This document shows, piece by piece, positions 42,531 to 54,377 of a DNA stretch of 64,000 nucleotides. The DNA is taken from contig OY821645.1 of NCBI GenBank assembly GCA_963682135.1, positions 544,001 to 608,000 on the forward strand. Reading direction: 5' to 3'. The notes under the pieces were generated by a model. The model searched no databases. It was not told the DNA's origin and saw only the letters and a list, made by a program, of their open reading frames with translations. The position numbers and the translations under genes were made by a program. The stretch's first letter is position 1. Each line of letters starts with the position of its first letter. This DNA comes from Methanothrix sp. GTDB lineage: Archaea > Halobacteriota > Methanosarcinia > Methanotrichales > Methanotrichaceae.

Positions 42531-43049
42531 TTATAGGTCAGCTAAGCTGAGAATTGAGCTTAAGTGGTTTGAATCTATTCTTAAATTTTTACAAATATTA
42601 AATAATGGAAAGTCCTGTGTTAATACACATGCACGATTATTTTTTGCACATAAAATTAATGATGAATCTGTAAAGCCGAATTTCCATGCATTCGAGCTTA
42701 AGTATTTATCGAAAAGGATTTCATTTTTTGATACGTAAACTTCATTAATTAGTTTAAAATATTTGTTATTAACATCGAATATTTCCTTTTTATCTTTTTT
42801 ATTACTAATATCATTATCTATAAGGTTCCATGCCTCTGAAAGAATTCCGGGAGTAATCAGCCGCTCCGCTGTGCAGTTCAAATACTGCTTTAAGATATCG
42901 TAATGTATCTTATTGCAGGGCATCCCTCCATATTTTATTCGTTTCATTTTAGGAATGTATTCCGGATCATAATTTCCTATGAGAAATAATAGAAGCGGAC
43001 CAGTATCGATTACTACTTTAGCAGGGACTTTGATCAATCTTTTCAACAT
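42531..43049 (-). CDS. PIN-domain protein
   Basis: VVIDTGPLLL, ILSEAWNL, FGFTDSSL and VLTQD; AT-rich. Confidence 0.85.
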   Translation of the reverse strand: MLKRLIKVPAKVVIDTGPLLLFLIGNYDPEYIPKMKRIKYGGMPCNKIHYDILKQYLNCTAERLITPGILSEAWNLIDNDISNKKDKKEIFDVNNKYFKLINEVYVSKNEILFDKYLSSNAWKFGFTDSSLILCAKNNRACVLTQDFPLFNICKNLRIDSNHLSSILSLADL

Positions 43050-43245
43050 CCATGATTTCTCCTTCATTATCCACGATTATCTTGAACTTTTTAGCTTCTT
43101 CATCAAACAAATCTTGAACCATGCAAATTACTATCCACTTATCACCGTCTCTTTTTACAGAAATAGTTTCAAAGATAAATTTTATAAGAGACTTCGTCTC
43201 TTCAAAATACCTCTTGGCAGCTATACCAGCATCTTTAGCATTCAT
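43018..43245 (-). CDS. Small protein coupled to the PIN gene, putative antitoxin
   Basis: 75 aa, overlaps the PIN start; preceded by a GAGGTG RBS; has a decayed paralog at 43604-43828. Confidence 0.7.
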   Translation of the reverse strand: MNAKDAGIAAKRYFEETKSLIKFIFETISVKRDGDKWIVICMVQDLFDEEAKKFKIIVDNEGEIMDVEKIDQSPC

Positions 43246-43315
43246 AATCTCACCTCAATATGGTCTCATTATGAGCTATACCTTTTTAAATTATCCCCAG
43301 AAATTGGAGAGGCAG

Positions 43316-43666
43316 ATGAATTCTGATGCCCATTATTGCTGCAGCGCAGGCAGGATGCGTGAAGGGAGGCATGATTTTATGGCTAGGGCAGGAGATGAGA
43401 TCCTGGTCATCAAGGATGTTCCGGCTCTCATCTGCGATACCTGCGGCGAGGTCGAATACGCGCTGGAGGTATCAAGAGAGATCGATGTGATCATGAAGGA
43501 TTTCTTCGCGGGACGGCTGCTGGCAAAGCCCCTGGCGGCGGGGGAGAATGGCATTCAAGCCCCAACGGGCGGATTCGATGGTATGTGCATAGTCTGGAAT
43601 GGTTCAGATGGGACTTTTGTCGAGCATTTCGACTTCCATGATTTCTCCTTCGCCATTCACGATTAG
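43316..43666 (+). pseudogene. YgiT/MqsA-type zinc-finger antitoxin, probably degenerate
   Basis: C..GRMREG...ILVIKDVPALICDTCGE; the natural stop appears lost and the frame reads into the next remnant. Confidence 0.65.
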
Positions 43667-43828
43667 TCTGAACTTTTTGTCTTCATCTTCAAATATCTTG
43701 GACCAAGCAGATGATCACCCAATTATCAGAATCTCTTTTGCGGAGACCATCCCAAAGATGAACTTGGTTAGGGTTTTGGTTTCTTGAAAATATTTCTTGG
43801 CGGAAATTGCGGCATCTTTGGCATCTAT
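43604..43828 (-). pseudogene. Frameshifted paralog of 43018-43245
   Basis: My translation: IDAKDAAISAKKYFQETKTLTKFIF...WVIICLVQD...KKFRLIVNGEGEIMEVE; ATA in place of ATG and two frameshifts. Confidence 0.8.
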
Positions 43829-44141
43829 GTCATCACTCTTGGTTCATTATGAGCAACACATTTATCAATTTCCCCAAAGATTGTGCAGAGAGACCTGAAT
43901 CATGCAATACTGCGCATGACCTGCCCAAGGGGCCCGTTTCCTGAGCGCGAAAGCAACGAGAGGCACGGACCACAAGCGCACACCCGCGAGGGCGCGCGTG
44001 CGGGCAGACGGTGGCACTAGAGGAGGGCTGCTCAGCGGCCACCGGTTGGAGCGGCTCAAATGACGAGGGTAGGCGAACGTAAATGGTGGAAGGCGATATG
44101 CAAAGAATAAATCTATAAATTTTTTTATATAGGTGATATGT

Positions 44142-47100
44142 ATGTCCGATCTAATAAAGGCTTTGGCTTCCAATATCGTCGTAAGAAAGCAATCAGCTTC
44201 AGAGCCTTATGTAATGCTACTCGGAGCAGGAGCATCAATAAATTCCGGCTGTTCTTCGATGAATCAAATCATAAACGATTTGCTCAGTACTCGTGAGCCA
44301 ACGCGATTTGCCGAATGGGAAAAGAAAATTAATGACGCTAACCTGGTTAATGCTCAATTCGGGGCCCTCCTAGAAAAAGATCTTGCGTCAGAAAAGGTTA
44401 CGCTATTTTATGATATATGGGGCCATCTTGATCGTGATTCTCAGTATTCAATACTAAGAAAGCATTTATGGGAAGGCAAAAGACCTTCAGAAGGTTATAT
44501 TATACTAGCGAATCTTATAAAAAATGGTTATGTAAAAATAATTTTAACAACAAATCTTGATAATTTACTTGAGAAATCCTTGAATAGTCTAGGATTATAT
44601 CAACCAGAAAATTTTATCGTTATCACAAATGGGAAAGATAAACCGGAGGAAATTCGAGAACAGATTGAATCCGAACGTATACCTTTTAAATTGATCAAAT
44701 TACATGGAAGTCTAGAATCGCCTCTGAGTTTCGCATTTACTCCTAGAGAAGTATTTGATTTTGAGACTGCTATCAAACCAAGCTTATCTAGAGTCATTAA
44801 TCAAAGCCTCATAATTATAGGCCATAGTATGCAGGATAGAGATATCGATATGCTCTTTGAAGAAGATGGAAAAGAGATATATTTTATTAAACCAAGCCCT
44901 CCTGAGCCGATTAGTAGAATGGATCTGATCTTAAGGGTGCGAGGATTAGGAAGCGTAATCAGTGGTGATGAAGGCAAATTTGATGATTTCTTAAAAGAAT
45001 TAATAAACTGCATAAACATGGAATTTGAGGAAAGAATTATATCAAATCTTGGCTCATCTATAGAAGAATTCCTACAAAAAATTGGATATGGTCATGAGCT
45101 CAAGGTGCCAAGAAGCCGTTTTAAAAACTTGCCCGAACTTTACGTAAAGCCGACAGAATATGATGAGATTTGCTCAAAATTAGATCGAGAACATATTATA
45201 TTTATAATAGGTGAACCACACCTTGGCAAAACCTATACAGCTCTTTATTTATTATGGGAGTACCATCAAAAGGGGTTTGAGCCATTGCATATAAGTCATG
45301 ACAAATTAATAGCCCTTTTGCACCAAAATGACGGGAATATAAAAAGTGTTTTTTTGAATTTATTTAGCAGCAACGAGGCAACTCCACGAATAGTCCATTT
45401 TGATGATCCATTTGGCGAAACTATGGAGCGTAGATCCGATGCTTTCACAAAAGAATTGGATCTATTCTTGAATCTAGCTCAGGAATTTGAGCATTTGAGG
45501 ATAATAGTAACAACAAGGTTGAATATATTTAGGGAGGCTCTACAAATTGTTCACAATTCTAAAAAAATAGAAAATTTGGAGAAAGATATTAGAGTACATA
45601 CATCATATCGACGAGACATTTTGCTTGATATCTTTCGTCGCTATTCTAAATTCTACAAGCCATTGTGGGCAAATGATAGCAAGATTGTTTTAATACTTGA
45701 TGAGAAGCTGCCTGAACTCCTCCCAGCCCCCCATAATATTGAATTTTTTGTCAGAACTTCAGAGAGACTAACTTCATTAGATGATGTATTGCGTCATGTT
45801 GATACTTCTAAAGAAATGATCAAAGCGCTAGGTGAATGGATGGCATCTCTGCCGGATTATGAACAAATATTCTTAATATGGCTGGAAGTCTGTTCAACGT
45901 CTGACGCCATTTTTATCAATATAAATCCTACCAAGATCAATTTAGAAGAGGAATATAACTCCACCCTAGCTCATATGTTCCTTAAAAAATCTTTATCAGG
46001 AATCCCTTCAAATCCATTCTCTCGTGCAATAGATAAATTTAATATGATCCTTTTAGAAAGTCACGACAATGGCGGTATTGTCAAAATAAATTTTATACAT
46101 CCCTCGTACCATGAGGCTTTTTGGTATGCAGTTAAGAGAGATCTTTCTTTGGCACGATGGTGGAAATTAATAAAAGAAAGTATTCTAGATATTACGCGAA
46201 GGATAGATCCAATTCAATTAGGAATGATAGAACGCTATGGTGCGATAAACAGAGATTTAAATCAGGTATTATTAATCTATGCGGAAAGCGACAACTTAGA
46301 CGAGCAGATGATTTCTTTAATGCATATGTCTAAGAAACTATCAGAGTTTATGGATTTGCCCCAATTTTTAAATAGCATAAATTCAATATTAAATAATGGT
46401 TCGTATATTCACAAGTATAATCTATTGACTATTATTGAAGAAGATCTCATACGGTTGCCACAAGAGATACAAATCAATTTAACACAATTAGCTTTCGACT
46501 CAAATTCCATAATTCGCGGCAAGACTGAAAACATTTTGATTAATAATCATAAAAAATTTAATCTAGAAGTTAAATCATCAGAAAAGTACCAAACATGGCA
46601 AACAATTAAGCAATTATATAGAAAATCAAAAGATTTCTTAAGAAAGAACGAAAAAATAAATAAAAGAACGTCAGGAGATGCGCCTTCAAAAGAGATACCT
46701 TTATTTCTCGAAGAAAAATCACTAACTTATAATGTAATTGATGAGTTAAAGGAATATTATGAAAATTATGATATCTTTTATTTGATAAATACATATCCAG
46801 ATATAAATATAGATACAATCATACTGAACAGATTTATTAATATGGATGCTAGAAATATTAAATACATATTTAGTATAGAATCTGCAGTGCATTTATCCTA
46901 TATCGCAAAATTGATAGTTAGAAACTATAAAAAGATACCATTGGATCATAAACAAATGCTCTTTAGCAGTTCGATTAAAGTATCAGATGCTATAAGTAAT
47001 TATTTGGATGAAGAATTTAAGAAGATAAATGAAGAGATACTATTAGAATTCTTATTGTTTCCTGGATTGGTGCAATATAATTTATTAACACTAATGATTT

Positions 47101-47504
47101 TGAATTTCGCTAAATTATCAGCTGAGACAAGACATATTGTATTCAAAATTATTAGAGACTCATCGAGTCAATGGATAGGGGGATCAATAGGCCAGTTGAC
47201 TATGAAAGGTAATAAGAATAAGATTAAAAGTACGTTGCCTTTAATCCATGAGATTATAGAACTTAAAAAAACCAATAAACGATTTATGGGTGCCTTTTTA
47301 GCGGAGATGGCACAAATGGACTACGATTCAGATCTTGTTTTAGCTAAGAATTTTAAACCGATTCTTTTGAGAATATCAATAGATCCAGAGATAGTCAAAT
47401 ATGCCGAAGAATGGATGGATTATCAAATGAATAATTTTTCCGCATTTAACAAAGAATATTGGCTAAATGTAAAAGGATATTTAAATAATATAAATCAAAT
47501 TTAA
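44142..47504 (+). CDS. SIR2-like NADase + STAND NTPase (nSTAND3-like) + helical-repeat sensor; Avs-like antiviral protein
   Basis: LLGAGAS, TTNLD, KLHGS and IIGHS.QD (SIR2_2); GEPHLGKT and HFDDPFG (NTPase); strongly AT-rich. Confidence 0.85.
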   Translation: MSDLIKALASNIVVRKQSASEPYVMLLGAGASINSGCSSMNQIINDLLSTREPTRFAEWEKKINDANLVNAQFGALLEKDLASEKVTLFYDIWGHLDRDSQYSILRKHLWEGKRPSEGYIILANLIKNGYVKIILTTNLDNLLEKSLNSLGLYQPENFIVITNGKDKPEEIREQIESERIPFKLIKLHGSLESPLSFAFTPREVFDFETAIKPSLSRVINQSLIIIGHSMQDRDIDMLFEEDGKEIYFIKPSPPEPISRMDLILRVRGLGSVISGDEGKFDDFLKELINCINMEFEERIISNLGSSIEEFLQKIGYGHELKVPRSRFKNLPELYVKPTEYDEICSKLDREHIIFIIGEPHLGKTYTALYLLWEYHQKGFEPLHISHDKLIALLHQNDGNIKSVFLNLFSSNEATPRIVHFDDPFGETMERRSDAFTKELDLFLNLAQEFEHLRIIVTTRLNIFREALQIVHNSKKIENLEKDIRVHTSYRRDILLDIFRRYSKFYKPLWANDSKIVLILDEKLPELLPAPHNIEFFVRTSERLTSLDDVLRHVDTSKEMIKALGEWMASLPDYEQIFLIWLEVCSTSDAIFININPTKINLEEEYNSTLAHMFLKKSLSGIPSNPFSRAIDKFNMILLESHDNGGIVKINFIHPSYHEAFWYAVKRDLSLARWWKLIKESILDITRRIDPIQLGMIERYGAINRDLNQVLLIYAESDNLDEQMISLMHMSKKLSEFMDLPQFLNSINSILNNGSYIHKYNLLTIIEEDLIRLPQEIQINLTQLAFDSNSIIRGKTENILINNHKKFNLEVKSSEKYQTWQTIKQLYRKSKDFLRKNEKINKRTSGDAPSKEIPLFLEEKSLTYNVIDELKEYYENYDIFYLINTYPDINIDTIILNRFINMDARNIKYIFSIESAVHLSYIAKLIVRNYKKIPLDHKQMLFSSSIKVSDAISNYLDEEFKKINEEILLEFLLFPGLVQYNLLTLMILNFAKLSAETRHIVFKIIRDSSSQWIGGSIGQLTMKGNKNKIKSTLPLIHEIIELKKTNKRFMGAFLAEMAQMDYDSDLVLAKNFKPILLRISIDPEIVKYAEEWMDYQMNNFSAFNKEYWLNVKGYLNNINQI

Positions 47505-47677
47505 GTTAGAAATCATGCAGCAGAAAACTGATTATCAAAATAACAAAACTTAAAGGCAAATTATCATTTATTGTTTTCCTACCACCAGCACCTAGAAAAA
47601 AAATGCCAGATGGAAACCAACTCCTCTCCTTCACCTCAGGCCGACCGGCCTCCTGCTTTCTGCAAGAGCGATTGCTA

Positions 47678-48300
47678 TGCAATCCATCCCGCCCTGGCGA
47701 CATCGCCGCAAGCTCTGACGGCCCGGCCCACGGGCAGCGGCCACGAGCCCGCCCGAGATGCCGAGACGCGGCGATGGGCTGACGGGGCGCGGCTGCCGGT
47801 GGCCCCGCAAGAATCGCCAAGCCGGTCTTCGTGCGTCCTTTGTGTCTTCGTGCCTTTGTGGTTGGCCCGTTGCTGCTTGGTTATAATTATCAGCTAATAA
47901 TAACCGCAAGTCGCCGCAGTTTCCAATAGTCCAGCCCCCTAAAAAGCCGCCCAGCCGGTTACCGGCTCCACCTGGCACGATCGCTTACCAGGCAATCCAG
48001 CCCGCCCGGATGACATTGCAGCAAGCCCGGGCGGCCCGGCCCGCAGGTGGCAGCCACAAGCCAGCCCGAAGAAACGACGCGACACGGGCGATGAGCTGAC
48101 CGGGCGCGGCTGCCAGCAGGCCCGCAAGGAATGCTAAACAGAAGATTGCCTTGGACTCTGCCAAAAGTCTCTGTGCCTCTGTGGTTCAGTTCGTAATTGC
48201 TTTGATTATCAGCTAATAGTAACCGCAAATCTTCATTATTTCTCAAAATCCAGCACCCACAAAGACCGCCTAATCGGAAGCCAGCTCAGCCCGACATCAG
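47678..48300 (+). repeat. GC-rich interspersed repeat, block 1 (two tandem units, second degenerate)
   Basis: Shares GCAAGAATCGCCAAG, CTTTGTG..CTTTGTGGTT, the TTATAATTATCAGCTAATAATAA core and AGCCGGTNACCGGCT with the other blocks. Confidence 0.9.
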
Positions 48301-48566
48301 GTCCGACCGCCATCCTACGCTCCTGAGCGAGCGCGTTTGCATATGGGGGCACCAGTCAGCAACGTAGCGCTGGATGGCAGGCCCAATGATGGCAAGGATG
48401 GATATATTCTGGCCTGACCGGAGCCCTTCATCAGTTATCAGATGATAATATATTATATAGTAATATTTATATTTAATATATACTAACTTAGATTAGGTAA
48501 ATCTTAAGAATCGTGTTTATAACTACATGTCAATGTTCTGTTCCGAGAATCGAGTGGTCAAGTCGA

Positions 48567-49679
48567 TCATGTCGCATCACTTTGAAAAAATTCTATCACA
48601 TTTGCCATTATGAAGAAGGAACTGCCAATGATACCTATTACCCCTTTAGGAGATAACTTTATGATTTTAAATATAAAATTTGTAAAATTAATTAGTATAT
48701 TCTCTGACATAGGTGATACATATGTCAAAATCTTTTCTAAAACAAAACCGATAATCAAATTGAAAACAAACCAAAACAATGATGATAAGAATAGATTCCA
48801 TAGTTCATAGCCATGAGGATTATTTAGATTTATATCCCAGATCATGTTGGATGGATCATCAATTTTAATGATAAAAATGAGTATATAAGAAATGATAAAT
48901 ATGGATGTCATAGACACAGTTGCGATGTAACTTTTTATTATAACAAAGGTTGAATAATTTATTTTTAAATTTCTAATTACAGCATTATGTAACAGTTTGA
49001 ATAACTTAAAATATATAATACCTAATAATAAATAAAAAGAAAATCCTATTAAAATAGGGAGGATAACTGAGCACGCATTAATTGAAATATCACCTAGGAT
49101 CGTATTATATATCAGATCCAATGATATATGAAATTTGTATATTATCAAAAAATTTATGAAATAAATAGTTATTAGCCAAAAAACCGTCCTAATATACGTA
49201 TTTATAAATATAGATACAATTCTTTTATATTTTTGAAATATTAAAAATCTTGAAATTAAACAATTAGATAGATAATTTAATGCAAAATACAATATAAAAC
49301 AAATTATTGAATATAAAATAAACATCTCTGAATCTATTGCACCTCTCGGCTTAACTCCAAAATTGTTTAATAATTCTGGTAATGAACTTTTGTAAACTGC
49401 AAAATTCATCATCAATCCTAATACAAAAATCGTTAATAGCCTACTAATATCAGGCGCTTCCCTATTCATTCGGTTGAAAACCAACCTAGTAAAATGATCT
49501 GCTCTCTCATTAAGGCTGTCGATTTGACGTTTATTCAAAAAAAACTCTAGGCCCATCAATAGCCCTGCAAGTAGATTTAATAATATGCGTATTTGGTCCA
49601 ATGACAGAAATGGCATGTTTGACGGATCTAGAATATCTTCCCGTATAAAAAGGATCCGAAAACAGTCCTGGTTTACCAT
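48567..49679 (-). CDS. Very AT-rich polytopic membrane protein (likely start 49616)
   Basis: About 8 hydrophobic segments; lies between repeat blocks. Confidence 0.65.
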   Translation of the reverse strand: MVNQDCFRILFIREDILDPSNMPFLSLDQIRILLNLLAGLLMGLEFFLNKRQIDSLNERADHFTRLVFNRMNREAPDISRLLTIFVLGLMMNFAVYKSSLPELLNNFGVKPRGAIDSEMFILYSIICFILYFALNYLSNCLISRFLIFQKYKRIVSIFINTYIRTVFWLITIYFINFLIIYKFHISLDLIYNTILGDISINACSVILPILIGFSFYLLLGIIYFKLFKLLHNAVIRNLKINYSTFVIIKSYIATVSMTSIFIISYILIFIIKIDDPSNMIWDINLNNPHGYELWNLFLSSLFWFVFNLIIGFVLEKILTYVSPMSENILINFTNFIFKIIKLSPKGVIGIIGSSFFIMANVIEFFQSDAT

Positions 49680-49789
49680 TATATAAATATTTTGATTTTC
49701 TAATATTCGGCCATATTCTCAACTCAAGAGGCAACCATGCAGCTTAATGTCCAACTTCCAACGCGTCCTAGTGCAGGCAAGTTCCCAAC

Positions 49790-50410
49790 AAACGAACCCA
49801 CCTGGCGACTGCATCGCAGTCCACCGCACAGCCCGGTCCACTGGCAACTGCCATGGGACCAAGCCCGAGGCGCGGCGATGGGCTGACGGGGCACGTCTAC
49901 CGGTGGCCCCGCAAGAAGCGTCAAGCCGTTATTTGTGCGTCCTTTGTGAGCTTCGTGTGCTTTGTGGTTTAGCCCGTAGCTGCTAGATTATAATTATCGG
50001 CTAATAATAACCGCAAGTCACCATCGTTTCCAATAGTCCAGCCCCCCTGAAATCCGCCCCGCCGGTGACCGGCTCCACCTGGCACGAGTGCTTGCCATGC
50101 AATCCAGCCTGCCCGGACGACATCGCAGCAAACCCGGACGGCCCGGCCCACAGGTGGCGAAAGAGTGTCCCCTCTCATCGAAGACTTCGCGGCTTCGCGC
50201 CTTCGCGTGAGCCCGTGATCTTTGGCCCGACCGGCCTCCAGCGCCCCCGAGCACGCGCGTGCAGGCAGGCCCACCCGGCGAGCACAGCCCAGCGCGCTCC
50301 GGCCCAACTGGCAGCAGCCACGAGCCCGCCCGAGGCAACGACGCGATGCGGGCGATGGGCCAACGGGGCGCGGATGCCGATGGCCTCGCAAGAATCGCCA
50401 AACTGCAGAG
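49790..50410 (+). repeat. GC-rich interspersed repeat, block 2
   Basis: Core at 49986-50012, same orientation as block 1. Confidence 0.9.
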
Positions 50411-50481
50411 CCACATAAACAAGTTCTATGAAAATGAGATCCGAGAAAAGCCGTCAGGAGCGCCAGTACCGGTTAACAATG

Positions 50482-50865
50482 CTAATCTCGATCTTGATTA
50501 CCCATGGCCGCAAACCGAGATCTAACAAAATCCATGAACTGCCGCAAACCTATACAAGGATCGTCATCAATCTGGCTCTCCTCGACTGCATCTTGAGAGC
50601 CGCTATGAAAATGCTTGGGGAAAGTCGATACTCTTTTCCAGTTTGTGTCTGGAAAATTATCATGACGATACATTGTGCCGTCGATATGCCGTCGCTCCCA
50701 ATGATATGAGAATCGCCCTAAAACCTTGAAAGAGAACCATACGTCGATAAACGAGCCGTCTTTAACAAATGCCCTGAGCTTGCCGCGAAAAATGATTGAG
50801 TCTGATAGAGTGTCAGCATATTCAGTATCTACGACCCGCTTGAGCGCCTTCAGGTCTATTACTAT
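50482..50865 (-). CDS. DUF6516/TumE-like toxin, lacking a canonical start codon
   Basis: Frame open from ATA 50865: ..KLRAFVKDGSFIDVW...FSYHWERR....YRHDNFP....STFPKHFH. Confidence 0.7.
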   Translation of the reverse strand: MVIDLKALKRVVDTEYADTLSDSIIFRGKLRAFVKDGSFIDVWFSFKVLGRFSYHWERRHIDGTMYRHDNFPDTNWKRVSTFPKHFHSGSQDAVEESQIDDDPCIGLRQFMDFVRSRFAAMGNQDRD

Positions 50866-51143
50866 TGCGGAAAGCTCTTCATCGCCGCTAATATTTCATC
50901 TCTCCTAACTTCCAGAAAGTCAAGTTCCTGGAAATCGTCCAAGACATCTGCTTCCCGTACTTCACCTCTTTTCAGCTTATCGTCCAGCTCAAAGATGGAC
51001 CTTATGCCATGCTTTGCACCGATCTCGAATATCTCTGCCTCGATACATCTCAGCTCTCTCTCCAGAAATACCTTGATACTTGCTCGAGCTAGAATGTCAC
51101 GATCCATATTCAAGACACTCGCAACCTCGTCGATAACTTCCAT
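50862..51143 (-). CDS. Putative antitoxin partner of the DUF6516-like toxin
   Basis: 93-aa acidic helical protein whose stop overlaps the toxin frame start. Confidence 0.7.
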   Translation of the reverse strand: MEVIDEVASVLNMDRDILARASIKVFLERELRCIEAEIFEIGAKHGIRSIFELDDKLKRGEVREADVLDDFQELDFLEVRRDEILAAMKSFPQ

Positions 51144-51284
51144 GATCTGATACCATCTGTATATCTGCCATTAAGATATTTTAATCCTCTTGTTTCCATA
51201 GTGCAAGTTCTGTCATGATTGCCTGGACGCTTCCTGCCCTCTGGATACGACCGCTTCTTGTCAAGTGAGCACACATGGCGAAAA

Positions 51285-51745
51285 TGAGCCGCAAGCTCGC
51301 ATGGCCTGGCCCGCAGGATGCGGCTACAAGCCCGCCCAAGGCAACGACGCGATGCGGGCGATGGGCCGACGGAGCGTGGCTGCCGGTGTCTCTGCAAGAA
51401 TCGCCAAGCTGGTCTTTGTGCGTTCTTTGTGAGCTTCGTGCGCTTTGTGGTTTGGCCCGTTGCCGCTTCGTTATAATTATCAGCCAATAATAACCATAAG
51501 TCGCCACAGTTTCCAATAGTCCAGCCTCCTGAAAAGCCGCCCAGCTGGTGACCGGCTCCACCTGGCACGAGCGCTTACCAGGCAATCCAGCTCGCCCTGA
51601 CGACATCGCCGCAATCCCAGACGGCCCGGCCCGCAGGCAGCGAAAAATTGTTCCATCTCATCGGAGACTTCGCGTCTTCGCGTGAGCCCTTGATCTCGGG
51701 CCAACCGACCTCGCCCCCGAGCGCGTGCGTGCAGGCGGGCTTGCC
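51285..51745 (+). repeat. GC-rich interspersed repeat, block 3
   Basis: Core at 51469-51495, same orientation. Confidence 0.9.
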
Positions 51746-51903
51746 GCACAAACCTCTTTCCAATCGACAAAGGTCCACAAAGAAGAAAAACTTAAAAATG
51801 CGGCGCTCAAATCTGAGCCAGTATCTCCGTTCCCTTATCTATTTAAGTATAGAGCTACCAAATACAGGAATTATATCTGATACCTTGATAGAAAGGAGAC
51901 CTA

Positions 51904-52206
51904 ATGAATCGATTTGAGGACCTGAGGGATAAAGTTTTGCCATTGCTCAGGCCCTACGTTAAGCGCATTGCCGTCTTCGGGTCTTTTGCTCGGGGCGAGG
52001 AGACACCAGAAAGCGACATCGACCTTCTGGTGGAACTAAGAGCCGCAGACAGCCGTCCCCGACTTGGGCTGGCATGGTTTGGCCTGGAAGAAGAGCTTGG
52101 CCGCGTTCTGGGAAGAGAAGTGGAACTTATAGCTGAAGGCTCTCTAAGTCCATATTTGCGACCCTACGCAGAAAAGGATCTGGTTCTGCTCTATGAAGAA
52201 AGATGA
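51904..52206 (+). CDS. Minimal nucleotidyltransferase (MNT) antitoxin
   Basis: VFGSFARGEETPESDIDLLVE. Confidence 0.92.
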   Translation: MNRFEDLRDKVLPLLRPYVKRIAVFGSFARGEETPESDIDLLVELRAADSRPRLGLAWFGLEEELGRVLGREVELIAEGSLSPYLRPYAEKDLVLLYEER

Positions 52207-52552
52207 CTCGGTTTATCTTCGCCATATCATGGATGCCTTCATGCAGATAGAGCACTACACCGATGGCGTCTCTCATGAAGAGTTTATGAAAGACAATCTG
52301 ATTCAAGATGGAGTAATTAGACAGCTAGAGGTTATGGGAGAGGCTGCTCGCAATCTATCCGATGACCTGCGTGGCGATTACCCGCATATTCCCTGGCGTC
52401 AGATGATAGGCCTTAGAAACCGCATGATTCACGCTTATTTTAACGTAAACCTGTAGATTATCTGGGAGATCGTTCAAGGGGATATTCCAAATCTAAAGCG
52501 AGAGACGAAGCGCGTGCTTGAGGATATTGGTCAGGAAAGCCGACATATATAG
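52193..52552 (+). pseudogene. HEPN (DUF86) toxin interrupted by an in-frame TAG
   Basis: IPWRQMIGLRNRMIHAYF (Rx4H), then TAG at 52454; frame continues IIWEIVQGDIPNLK to 52552. Confidence 0.85.
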
Positions 52553-52604
52553 CGGCAAACGTTTTCCCGGGGCCGGAGTCCTTTAAAGCAGCATCCACGG
52601 CTTT

Positions 52605-53080
52605 AGCGCGGCTGCCGGTGGCCTCGCAAGAATCGTCAAGCCGGTCTTTGTGCGTCCTTTGTGAGCTTGGTGCGCTTTGTGGTTTGGTGCGTTGCTGCTC
52701 CGATATAATTATCAGCTAATAATATCGCAAGTCACCATCGTTTCCAATAGTCCTGCCCCCCGAAAAGCCGCCCAGCCGGTGACCGGCTCCACCTGGCACG
52801 ATCGATTGCCTGGCAAGCCAGCCCGCCCGAAGCAACGACGCGATGCGGGCGATGGGCTGATGGGGCGCGGCTGCCGGTGGGCCCGCAAGAATCGCCAAGC
52901 TGGTCTTTGTGCGTCCTTTGTGAGCTTGGTGCGCTTTGTGGTTTGGTGCGTTGCTGCTCCGATATAATTATCAGCTAATAATATCGCAAGTCACCATCGT
53001 TTCCAAGAGTCCAGCCCCCCGGAAATGCCGCCTAGCCGGTGACCGGCTCCACCTTGGCACTAGCGCTTACCAGGCAATCA
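52605..53080 (+). repeat. GC-rich interspersed repeat, block 4 (two tandem units, 259-bp period)
   Basis: Cores at 52701-52727 and 52960-52986; units are near-identical. Confidence 0.92.
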
Positions 53081-53170
53081 GAAAGCTGCCAATAAGCTCG
53101 GATTTCAGATGGTGAGGCAAAAAGGAAGCCACACCAGATGGAAACATCCCGATGGCCGAGCGACTACCAA
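53081..53170 (+). pseudogene. hicA: HicA toxin fragment
   Basis: KAANKLGFQMVRQKGSHTRWKHPDGRATT; truncated at both ends and abutting the repeat end. Confidence 0.8.
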
Positions 53171-53255
53171 TTGTCAAGGTAAAAGGAAATTCCATCAAAT
53201 GGAAGGTTCAATCAGTTCTATAAAAAAGATTGTAAAAGGAGAATGGATTACAGCC

Positions 53256-54377
53256 TCAGCCATCATTGCCAAGATCAGCTTCGCCGCCTCCATTATTGCT
53301 GTAATCGTTGCTGCTTCCCAGTCCCATGCAATTGCATCTGCCATTCGCATAGTAGCATCCATCAGGGCAATCAGCTACCGGATTTGGTACAGGATTAAAT
53401 GGTCCCGGCTCAGGATTTGGATTGGGAACGGGCCCCGGCATGGGTTCGGGATCCAGCCCGCGGCAGAGGCACTGGCCGCCGACATAATCGCAGAGCGGAT
53501 TACTCTCGCACTCCGCCACGGGATTGGGGGCCGGCTTCATGTAGCACTGGCAGCTTCCGTCACGCCATTCGCACGTTTGTGCATCGGAACTTCTGGCCTC
53601 GCACTCCGCCACAGGATTGGGAGCCGGCTTCATGTAGCACTGGCAGCTTCCGTCACGCCATTCGCACGTTTGCGTATCGGAACTTCTAGACTCACATTCT
53701 TTCCTGGGGTCTGGAGTTGGCCTGGGAACAGGTCGGATTGTGGATGAATAGACATCGATGATTACGGCATTGCTGTATCCGCTGTTGGTCGCAAACAGGT
53801 TTCTGTGCCGGCCGGGCAGATCGGCATAATACCAGATATAGTAGTATCCGCTCTGCACCAATCCCAGGCTGTATCCCATAACATAGCCGCTGGGATAGAT
53901 CTCGTACATGGTGACGGGAGATGCCTGCGGCACATAGATCAGCTCTCGCGTCCATCCGCCCAAAGGCAGTGTGGCATATAGCGTCCAGCTGACAGCTCTT
54001 TCTATCCACAATCCCGGATTATTGGCAGGAAATGTATTGGTGAAATCATTCCAGGCTAGATAGTCTCCGTTGTAGTACATATACCTGGGCGGATTCGTAA
54101 GGACTGCCGAGGGCATCAGCGTCTTCAGATCAGCAATAGGAGGGGCCTGCTCGGTGTAAGCGGCAATCTCCGTTCCTGCTTCACCTGAAGTTGCCTGCGG
54201 TGCGCCGGTGTCAACAAAGGCGCTTTCTAAATTACCAGCAGGAACCAGGGCGTCGAATTCGGAAATAGTCAGATTCTCTGCACCAGAATTTCCGGACTGG
54301 TCCAATCCCCCCAATGATATGCTGCAAAGGAGGAGTGTGGCTATGGCAATCCGAAATAGCAAATAGTCGGCTTTCAT
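53256..54377 (-). CDS. Secreted protein with a YEIYPSG/YADLPG domain and Cys/Pro-rich repeats
   Basis: Signal peptide; 27-aa duplication CE.RSSD.QTCEWRDGSCQCYMKPAPNPVAE. Confidence 0.78.
   Translation of the reverse strand: MKADYLLFRIAIATLLLCSISLGGLDQSGNSGAENLTISEFDALVPAGNLESAFVDTGAPQATSGEAGTEIAAYTEQAPPIADLKTLMPSAVLTNPPRYMYYNGDYLAWNDFTNTFPANNPGLWIERAVSWTLYATLPLGGWTRELIYVPQASPVTMYEIYPSGYVMGYSLGLVQSGYYYIWYYADLPGRHRNLFATNSGYSNAVIIDVYSSTIRPVPRPTPDPRKECESRSSDTQTCEWRDGSCQCYMKPAPNPVAECEARSSDAQTCEWRDGSCQCYMKPAPNPVAECESNPLCDYVGGQCLCRGLDPEPMPGPVPNPNPEPGPFNPVPNPVADCPDGCYYANGRCNCMGLGSSNDYSNNGGGEADLGNDG

Follow-up and report, generated by a model that had tools for sequence, protein, structure and literature searches.

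Integron-like arrays of predicted toxin–antitoxin and defence cassettes between co-oriented modular repeats in Methanothrix

Among the described systems closest to the one reported here, the superintegron of Vibrio cholerae is a sedentary chromosomal integron with Vibrio cholerae repeats (VCRs) of ~125 bp, and the pdif modules of Acinetobacter plasmids are toxin–antitoxin (TA) or resistance modules lying between 28-bp Xer sites in alternating inverted orientation, the housekeeping Xer recombinase being encoded elsewhere. Repetitive extragenic palindromes and bacterial interspersed mosaic elements (REP/BIME), as well as miniature inverted-repeat transposable elements (MITEs), are intergenic repeats. 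Archaeal integrons and CALINs (clusters of attC sites lacking integron integrases), with canonical attC sites and IntI and with TA-rich cargo, are described in passages of Ghaly et al. (2022, PMC9668308), which also hold that TA cassettes can stabilise very large arrays and in which the one mention of "Methano" is of a Methanobacteriota genome. Here we describe, in a 64,000-nt stretch of Methanothrix sp. DNA (assembly GCA_963682135.1, contig OY821645.1, positions 544,001–608,000; "the window"), an array in which unrelated gene modules alternate with a long direct repeat, and we interpret it as one of several chromosomal cassette arrays widespread in Methanothrix, in which self-contained modules lie between co-oriented modular repeats. 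A search of the full-text literature returned no published description of these repeats; the supplementary genome list of Ghaly et al. (75 archaeal genomes) lay outside that search.

Coordinates without a suffix are positions in the window, and those in kb are positions on the 3.04-Mb single-contig genome (G000; further genomes and array loci carry G and L numbers). Four blocks of a direct repeat of ~313 nt, all on the + strand, occupy 47630–53080, and the cargo set apart by them follows in the order SIR2-STAND gene, 370-aa open reading frame (ORF), TumE-type TA pair, MNT–HepT pair and HicA fragment. A repeat search located six same-strand copies of a 39-nt repeat stretch (at 47935, 48254, 50042, 51525, 52756 and 53016) and six genuine copies of a 21-nt AT core (at 47883, 48202, 49990, 51473, 52705 and 52964); a seventh core match, of 76% at 49011, lies inside cargo and looks like chance. 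Compared with one another, the blocks are 81–93% identical over 213–405 nt, and the E values of 1e-72 to 1e-109 show that this similarity is not chance. An earlier note on this DNA, made from the sequence letters, had proposed four same-orientation blocks with six cores separating unrelated modules, a cargo of SIR2-STAND, TA, MNT–HEPN and HicA-fragment type, and cargo-free tandem units in two of the blocks. Repeat search and block alignment bear out the first proposal, Pfam matches (SIR2_2 with nSTAND3, TumE, NTP_transf_2 with HepT, and 19 residues of HicA) the second, and block 1 (47662–48293) and block 4 (52600–53080) the third. Unit alignment resolved the modular repeat into a GC-rich A-element of ~130–190 nt, present at nearly every joint in the genus, and an optional C-element, which follows the A-element at many joints and also stands alone as an ORF-less "empty" unit. 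Within the C-element, a GC-rich lead-in is followed by three to four CTYTGYG iterons of 8–9 nt, a spacer of ~22 nt, the AT-rich core and ~70 nt more. The array thus comprises these features:

44133–47504, + strand: SIR2_2 plus nSTAND3 (STAND NTPase) defence-type protein of 1123 aa, the proximal cargo, GC 0.33 (Pfam; PADLOC SIR2 models, best E 1.5e-14)
47630–48440, + strand: repeat block 1, cargo-free, with unit u1 (47662–47974), the degenerate u2 (47975–48293) and a diverged A-type tail (unit alignment)
47714–47729, + strand: 16-nt anchor of the A-element, its best-conserved stretch; further starts at 48027, 49824, 50134 and 51617
47879–47905, + strand: AT-rich core of the C-element, a 27-nt imperfect 11-5-11 palindrome; further starts at 48198 (degenerate), 49986, 51469, 52701 and 52960
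48567–49679, − strand: 370-aa ORF, GC 0.27, with no Pfam or PADLOC family
49780–50410, + strand: repeat block 2, u3 followed by u4 with a 155-nt insert (50158–50312) that contains (CTTCGCG)x3 at 50185–50213
50482–51143, − strand: TumE-type toxin frame (50482–~50860) and its 93-aa upstream partner ORF (50862–51143); Pfam TumE (PF20126) at 50482–50673
51270–51745, + strand: repeat block 3, u5 followed by the start of u6 with the insert type (155 nt) of block 2
51904–52456, + strand: MNT nucleotidyltransferase (51904–52206) and HepT/HEPN RNase (52193–52456), a TA pair preceded by an AT-rich region of its own (Pfam NTP_transf_2 and HepT)
52600–53080, + strand: repeat block 4, tandem u7 and u8 and the beginning of a third unit, cargo-free
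53080–53168, + strand: remnant of a HicA cassette at the distal array end; the HicA_toxin match, at 53109, covers residues 2–20 only (19 residues)

The window array (591–597 kb) is joined in this genome by three further arrays, at 686–688, 938–939 and 1436–1439 kb. With the 5.6-kb region as query, matches were found in 17 of 18 same-genus genomes and in none of 12 that represent two further families of the class, and a composite of iterons and core recovered 29 stretches among 185,579 species (one genome each), all 29 of them titled Methanothrix or Methanotrichaceae. Array neighbours include leuS, ilvC/uvrC, ribosomal L15e and RNase P genes. The repeat gave no blastn match in plasmid or phage collections. 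A viral source of the core was considered and rejected: its 19-mer matched four IMG/VR contigs, none with flanking similarity, and we regard these matches as chance.

For counts across arrays, 39 of 60 sequences (59 loci and the window stretch) were kept; 10 loci that repeat DNA already included, 4 viral chance hits and 7 loci with no array or only a fragment were left out. The 39 loci hold 147 A-elements, and these are not scattered singly: 109 of 110 neighbouring pairs (within 4 kb) lie on the same strand, at a spacing of either ~300–450 nt or ~700–1300 nt. The 109 same-strand intervals from A to A divide into 28 empty units (300–450 nt with core), 39 with cargo only, 38 with cargo and core, and 4 short ones; the core is absent from 43. 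Hits to the unit profile are likewise co-oriented (165/166 neighbours), and the 76 cargo gaps between them have a median length of 769 nt (range 473–2774). Before the cargo, the repeat stops at the end of A in 27/76 gaps and at the end of the unit in 31/76; after the cargo, it resumes at the start of A in 46/76. Empty units occur in tandem runs of up to three.

Cargo was surveyed with Pfam over 119 ORFs of at least 55 aa in ten arrays, some of these ORFs being spurious. The most frequent domains were PIN (9), HicA (6), UPF0150 (6) and HepT (5), followed by MNT, UPF0175, DUF3368, DUF4258 and HicB-like (3 each), MqsA (2) and TumE (1); the few matches other than TA include two acylphosphatases and one IS21. 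As judged from these domains, the array cargo is overwhelmingly type II TA modules. Adjacent small toxin and antitoxin genes, by which such modules are recognised, are present in the window (MNT with HepT, TumE with its partner) and in the arrays of relatives (PIN, HicA/HicB-UPF0150, HepT/MNT, UPF0175/DUF3368 and DUF4258/MqsA). The 76 cargo intervals fall into 27 families, 18 of which are recurrent. Polarity relative to the repeat is identical in every one of 98 homologous cargo pairs (98/98), and gene direction varies by family (8 plus, 5 minus, 14 unclear). Larger AT-rich genes of defence type stand at the end beside the housekeeping flank and differ between genomes: the slot after the leuS-side flank holds SIR2-STAND here, an HD-CE protein in G017 and a UvrD-like helicase in G012, and the ilvC-adjacent array of this genome has another SIR2_2 gene, of GC 0.32, at its flank-proximal end (L018 5543–6715, ~688.5–689.7 kb). 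The corresponding position of the ilvC array in G006 is taken by an IS200 transposase and other AT-rich ORFs.

Cassette order and neighbours change between genomes, also at orthologous sites, so that the cargo order is not fixed and the same families recur in other orders and beside other neighbours. Written as successive cassette families, the window array reads 19, 3, 5 and L052 reads 5, 3, 6; L050 reads 16, 6, 9, 15 and L035 reads 9, 6, 1, 1, 7; L017 reads 17, 3 and L015 ends in 3, 17. The orthologous arrays L012 (4, 20, 10, 2, 11) and L015 (3, 4, 11, 10, 3, 17) differ in the same way. The leuS-side flank, common to all of them, makes the window array an orthologue of arrays in G012, G017 and elsewhere. 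Even so, TumE is the one cassette that it and G017 have in common, and with G012 the overlap is limited to the HicA remnant; G012 and G017 have three cassettes in common in a different order. In the ilvC-adjacent arrays of G000, G012 and G006, the distal cassette is kept and the interior differs. L012 and L030 have a flank that is 96% identical, yet they differ by cassettes 20, 10 and 11, their joint being a mosaic of repeat units. Inside arrays there are also segmental duplications of 1.0 kb that extend from one repeat to another. Transfer between species was considered for the 98–99% identical cassettes of L012 and L030 and rejected: because the flank at this orthologous site is itself 96% identical, their similarity is mostly vertical.

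The ends of shared blocks were located in 35 cargo pairs of at least 90% identity from different loci, with a 30-column window and a 70% identity threshold. Of the resulting 70 ends, 48 lie in the repeat (34 in A, 14 in C) and 22 in unique DNA; the left ends number 21 in A, 6 in C and 8 in unique DNA, and the right ends 13, 8 and 14, respectively. Within A, left ends cluster at model positions ~100–150 and right ends at ~60–110. In the alignment of L012, L030 and L044, a block of 97–98% identity takes in the cargo together with the adjoining halves of the two A-elements around it, the right half of the one before and the left half of the one after, and L044 agrees with L012 on the upstream side and with L030 on the downstream side. 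Exchange therefore takes place mainly in the repeat, and especially in A, but not at one nucleotide. Because ends placed in this way tend to fall at the variable centre of the repeat itself, they cannot separate a loose site-specific process from homologous recombination. The contigs of four sequencing runs yielded no circular cassette or strain variant; the joints in them had sides of only 20–41 nt or came from metagenomes in which other arrays contain the repeat.

Within the window, the repeats have a GC content of 0.55–0.75 and the genome a mean of 0.50. The earlier note had called the cargo AT-rich, which holds for the SIR2-STAND gene (0.33) and the 370-aa ORF (0.27) only; the TA cassettes, at 0.45–0.52, are near the genome mean. 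The TumE cassette has six other copies of 75–78% identity (two in G017, one each in G015, G013 and G008, and a partial one in G005), the homology block common to relatives spans 50510–51196, and an A-element begins within ~80 nt after the cassette in 5/5 copies whose flanks were examined, the window copy included. The TumE frame is open for ~126 codons and contains no ATG, GTG or TTG before its last 63 codons, the first canonical start leaving 63 aa; for this reason the window toxin may be decaying or may have an unusual start. Homologues of the MNT–HepT cassette sit in other arrays (L002, L021 and L052). The orthologous G012 array has an intact HicA cassette, part of which the HicA remnant matches at 91% identity. 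Synteny breaks at this remnant, the right flank of the window (FeoB onward) not adjoining arrays in relatives, and the distal flank of the orthologous G012 and L030 arrays is found ~105 kb away in this genome (484204–487685). From that displacement we conclude that a rearrangement breakpoint, lying within a truncated HicA cassette, marks the end of the window array.

The neighbourhood of the array has features of its own. Between leuS and the array, 42531–43925 contains small ORFs of no family and is the last syntenic stretch before the variable region; it is internally paralogous, 42983–43302 and 43610–43877 both matching one and the same segment in relatives. On the other side, a 373-aa ORF (53256–54377, − strand) without a Pfam or PADLOC family contains, at 53505–53690, a perfect-register tandem duplication of 93 nt, 94% identical, which would encode a 31-residue protein repeat.

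The repeat is conserved in primary sequence and not in fold. In a 54-copy alignment of C-elements from many genomes, iterons and core are 90–99% conserved, the core being the most conserved stretch, and the iteron variants (CTTTGTG, CTCTGTG and CTCTGCG types) shift in concert within one copy. RNAalifold assigned 0 base pairs to these 54 copies, and sub-alignments and 95 A-elements, on either strand, gave short local GC hairpins only; it is on these results that we deny a conserved fold. At up to 5 mismatches, the core has 12 sites genome-wide, one of them the reverse-strand self-match of the palindrome, vs 0 in 3 shuffles. The u7 and u8 copies of the core have paired changes in both palindrome arms; across the genus the palindrome is not maintained. 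The repeat unit is not bounded by inverted arms, and no terminal inverted repeats or target duplications were seen. The window holds no tRNA or tmRNA, and Rfam returned 0 matches at gathering score in the whole window and 0 at E up to 1 in 47500–53300. Long reverse-strand ORFs cross the repeat, yet its copies differ by single-base indels in the iterons, and we therefore take these ORFs as spurious and reject the repeat as coding DNA.

The unit is also a mosaic, since the 155-nt insert is present in some units only. The (CTTYGYG)x3 sub-module recurs at ~23 further sites in the genome (for example G000:C1:1958938, 171371 and 1270423), which are intergenic and often form inverted pairs, and the window copy of (CTTCGCG)x3 has many different flanks in metagenome contigs. 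Inverted pairs of (CTTCGCG)x3 and (CTTTGTG)x3 are able to form a hairpin of ~25–30 bp, and this short element looks like a REP-type one. Full A-elements were not found outside arrays in this genome.

We found no enzyme linked to the arrays. Whole-genome scans with PF00589, PF01797 and PF00239 gave no match in the window. Its 48 ORFs match 77 Pfam families, of which the 25 most frequent include neither an integrase nor a transposase, in agreement with the earlier note, which had reported none. The linked tyrosine recombinase that it had suggested looking for did not emerge: PF00589 matches lie at 721 kb (sub-threshold), 912 kb (intact), 1634 kb and 2807 kb (both with stops), and the genome's four arrays all lack a recombinase within 30 kb, the nearest being the sub-threshold match 33 kb from the 686-kb array. 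Serine recombinases are absent from the genome. The 84 large ORFs that flank 27 further loci match 97 families, and the 25 most frequent of these (housekeeping, TPR, SIR2 and similar families) include no recombinase.

Y1 transposase has 7 matches in the genome, largely from a 728-bp IS200-like element of which five copies (G000:C1:36224, 410374, 1037554, 1232808 and 2467492; 728–734 bp, 95–100% identical) are present; it encodes only a 155-aa Y1 transposase and has GC hairpins near both ends. Two further Y1 matches are at 878 kb and 2068 kb. Iterons together with an AT hairpin had suggested an HUH or rolling-circle origin of the repeat; we rejected such an origin through these transposases, the ends of the IS200-like element being unrelated to it: in a comparison limited to this one insertion sequence (IS), the best match of its ends and hairpins to the array was 11 nt, that is, chance. 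The PF02407 profile matched nowhere in the genome, and its positive control matched nowhere either. The repeat is accordingly without a match to the IS ends compared (the 728-bp IS200-like element), to Rfam, or to plasmid or phage records.

Set beside integrons, the Methanothrix loci are alike in being long arrays of ~1-kb cassettes between co-oriented, lineage-conserved repeats, rich in TA modules, with cassette polarity fixed relative to the site (98/98 pairs here), an order shuffled among relatives, and ORF-less units. They are unlike integrons, which need an adjacent intI and attI, in having neither IntI nor another tyrosine recombinase nearby. An attC site is an imperfect inverted repeat of 55–141 nt, conserved in fold and with R''/R' cores, whereas the Methanothrix joint measures 130–330 nt and is conserved in sequence; judged by fold, and not by an attC covariance-model score, it is not an attC site, and no R''/R' pairing was found. 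Further departures from integrons are that the cargo usually consists of two-gene operons with their own upstream regions, that block ends do not fall at one nucleotide, and that several arrays per genome adjoin housekeeping genes. An enzyme encoded elsewhere, as for pdif modules, would fit the absence of a linked one, but the Methanothrix repeats are direct, ten times longer and chromosomal, and their only palindromic part, the AT core, is missing from 43/109 joints. Nor do they have the form of pdif/Xer sites (28 bp, 11-6-11, alternating), being direct repeats with an 11-5-11 core whose palindrome is not kept across the genus; a passage of PMC2958812 gives 11-6-11 as the rule for XerA/dif sites. 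The resemblance to REP/BIME elements is confined to the (CTTYGYG)x3 sub-module, which is short, dispersed and often paired into hairpins; the full unit differs from REP or MITE-type repeats in that it keeps to cassette boundaries instead of being scattered, and it lacks terminal inverted repeats. By these comparisons the arrays fall into none of integrons, CALINs, pdif modules, MITEs, ends of the IS compared, or any Rfam family, and their architecture is integron-like nonetheless.

We hold, with moderate confidence, that recombination within the repeat has reshuffled an integron-like array of cassettes and that the likeliest agent of this is general homologous recombination. The arrays would gain, lose, duplicate and reorder cassettes through recombination inside the repeats; the cell's general homologous recombination would act on repeats of 130–330 nt and 70–95% identity, with sister chromosomes or DNA from relatives as partners, and addictive TA cargo would oppose the loss of cassettes. 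Of the archaeal gene-capture platform on a different repeat that the earlier note had proposed, the cassette array and its shuffling stand, but a dedicated capture mechanism stays conjectural, because no recombinase is linked, the block ends spread over the repeat, no circular cassette was seen and the repeat does not answer to the definition of attC. Several points weigh against this reading. The arrays compared are in many cases orthologues or belong to related species, so that 98/98 and 109/110 overstate the number of independent events; the 30-column, 70% rule tends to place ends at the variable centre of the repeat, the repeats being alike; and 22/70 block ends lie in unique sequence. Plain homologous recombination also leaves the first entry of unrelated cargo between repeats unexplained, and the L030 joint cannot be derived from that of L012 in one simple step. 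Finally, iterons, AT core and A anchor are 90–99% conserved across species, whereas the housekeeping flanks are only 71–88% identical to the window; given this strong and unexplained conservation of iterons and AT core, the C-element may be an ORF-less control cassette.

That conservation, which holds short motifs well above their flanks, is one of the points that would suit a true site-specific cassette system, in which an unlinked, trans-acting recombinase, XerA-type or of an unrecognised family, would act on the A-element or on the AT-core palindrome with its iterons, and cassettes would move as circles, as with IntI at attC. We consider such a system possible but doubtful. It would account for the strict polarity (98/98 pairs, 109/110 neighbours) and for the confinement of A-elements to arrays in this genome; the left (~100–150) and right (~60–110) block ends bracket the centre of the A model, and the one case of a right half of A, cargo and a left half of A has the layout expected for crossover inside a site. 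The core is an imperfect 11-5-11 palindrome with paired arm changes in two window copies, and one intact tyrosine recombinase gene exists, at 912 kb. Yet no recombinase lies within 30 kb of the genome's four arrays (nearest sub-threshold, 33 kb) or appears among the 25 most frequent of 97 families in the 84 flanking ORFs of the 27 further loci; block ends spread over ~100 nt and fall also in C (14/70) and in unique DNA (22/70); and the AT core is missing at 43/109 intervals and its palindrome lost at genus level. Only tentatively, then, would we picture a cassette system of Methanothrix's own, unrelated to integrons, with A as crossover site, C as ORF-less control cassette and a recombinase encoded elsewhere, which would move polar TA and defence cassettes within and between arrays and species. 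It is improbable that the repeat is a mere passenger, that is, a selfish non-autonomous element or a MITE- or REP-like satellite piling up in gene-poor TA islands whose cargo moves otherwise. The mosaic unit with its occasional 155-nt insert, the (CTTYGYG)x3 sub-modules at ~23 other sites, often in inverted hairpin-capable pairs and in many different metagenome contexts, and the runs of up to three tandem empty units would all fit a satellite, but the uniform orientation in arrays (109/110), the tie of cargo polarity to the repeat (98/98), the restriction of full A-elements to arrays, the lack of visible terminal inverted repeats or target duplications and the dissimilarity to the ends of the genome's IS200-like element do not. 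We give equally little credence to a chiefly regulatory repeat, in which the C-element would control or insulate the adjacent TA operons, either as a promoter or operator, with a TATA-like AT box and, upstream of it, iterons bound by a DNA-binding protein, or as the gene of a small RNA without structure, and duplication of this control region would give rise to the arrays. Conservation of primary sequence with no conserved fold (0 RNAalifold pairs in 54 copies) and iteron variants that shift in concert, as cognate binding sites would, point that way, as does the AT box, which we take to resemble an archaeal TATA element; the cargo genes, however, point in either direction and come with AT-rich upstream regions of their own, 43/109 joints have no core, and both the shuffling and the GC-rich A-element would go unexplained. 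A regulatory role is in any case compatible with recombination within the repeat rather than a replacement for it.

In wetlands, sediments and digesters, Methanothrix ranks with the most abundant methanogens that use acetate, and to our knowledge it has no genetic system. An array widespread in the genus and home to most of its movable TA and defence modules would be a chief source of variation between strains and of virus resistance, and its conserved repeat would offer homology arms or a landing pad for engineering Methanothrix. The arrays also show that an integron-like organisation, with polar cassettes, TA-rich arrays and shuffled order, is possible without attC or IntI, which bears on the origin of such platforms and on whether addictive cargo and long direct repeats suffice to build them.

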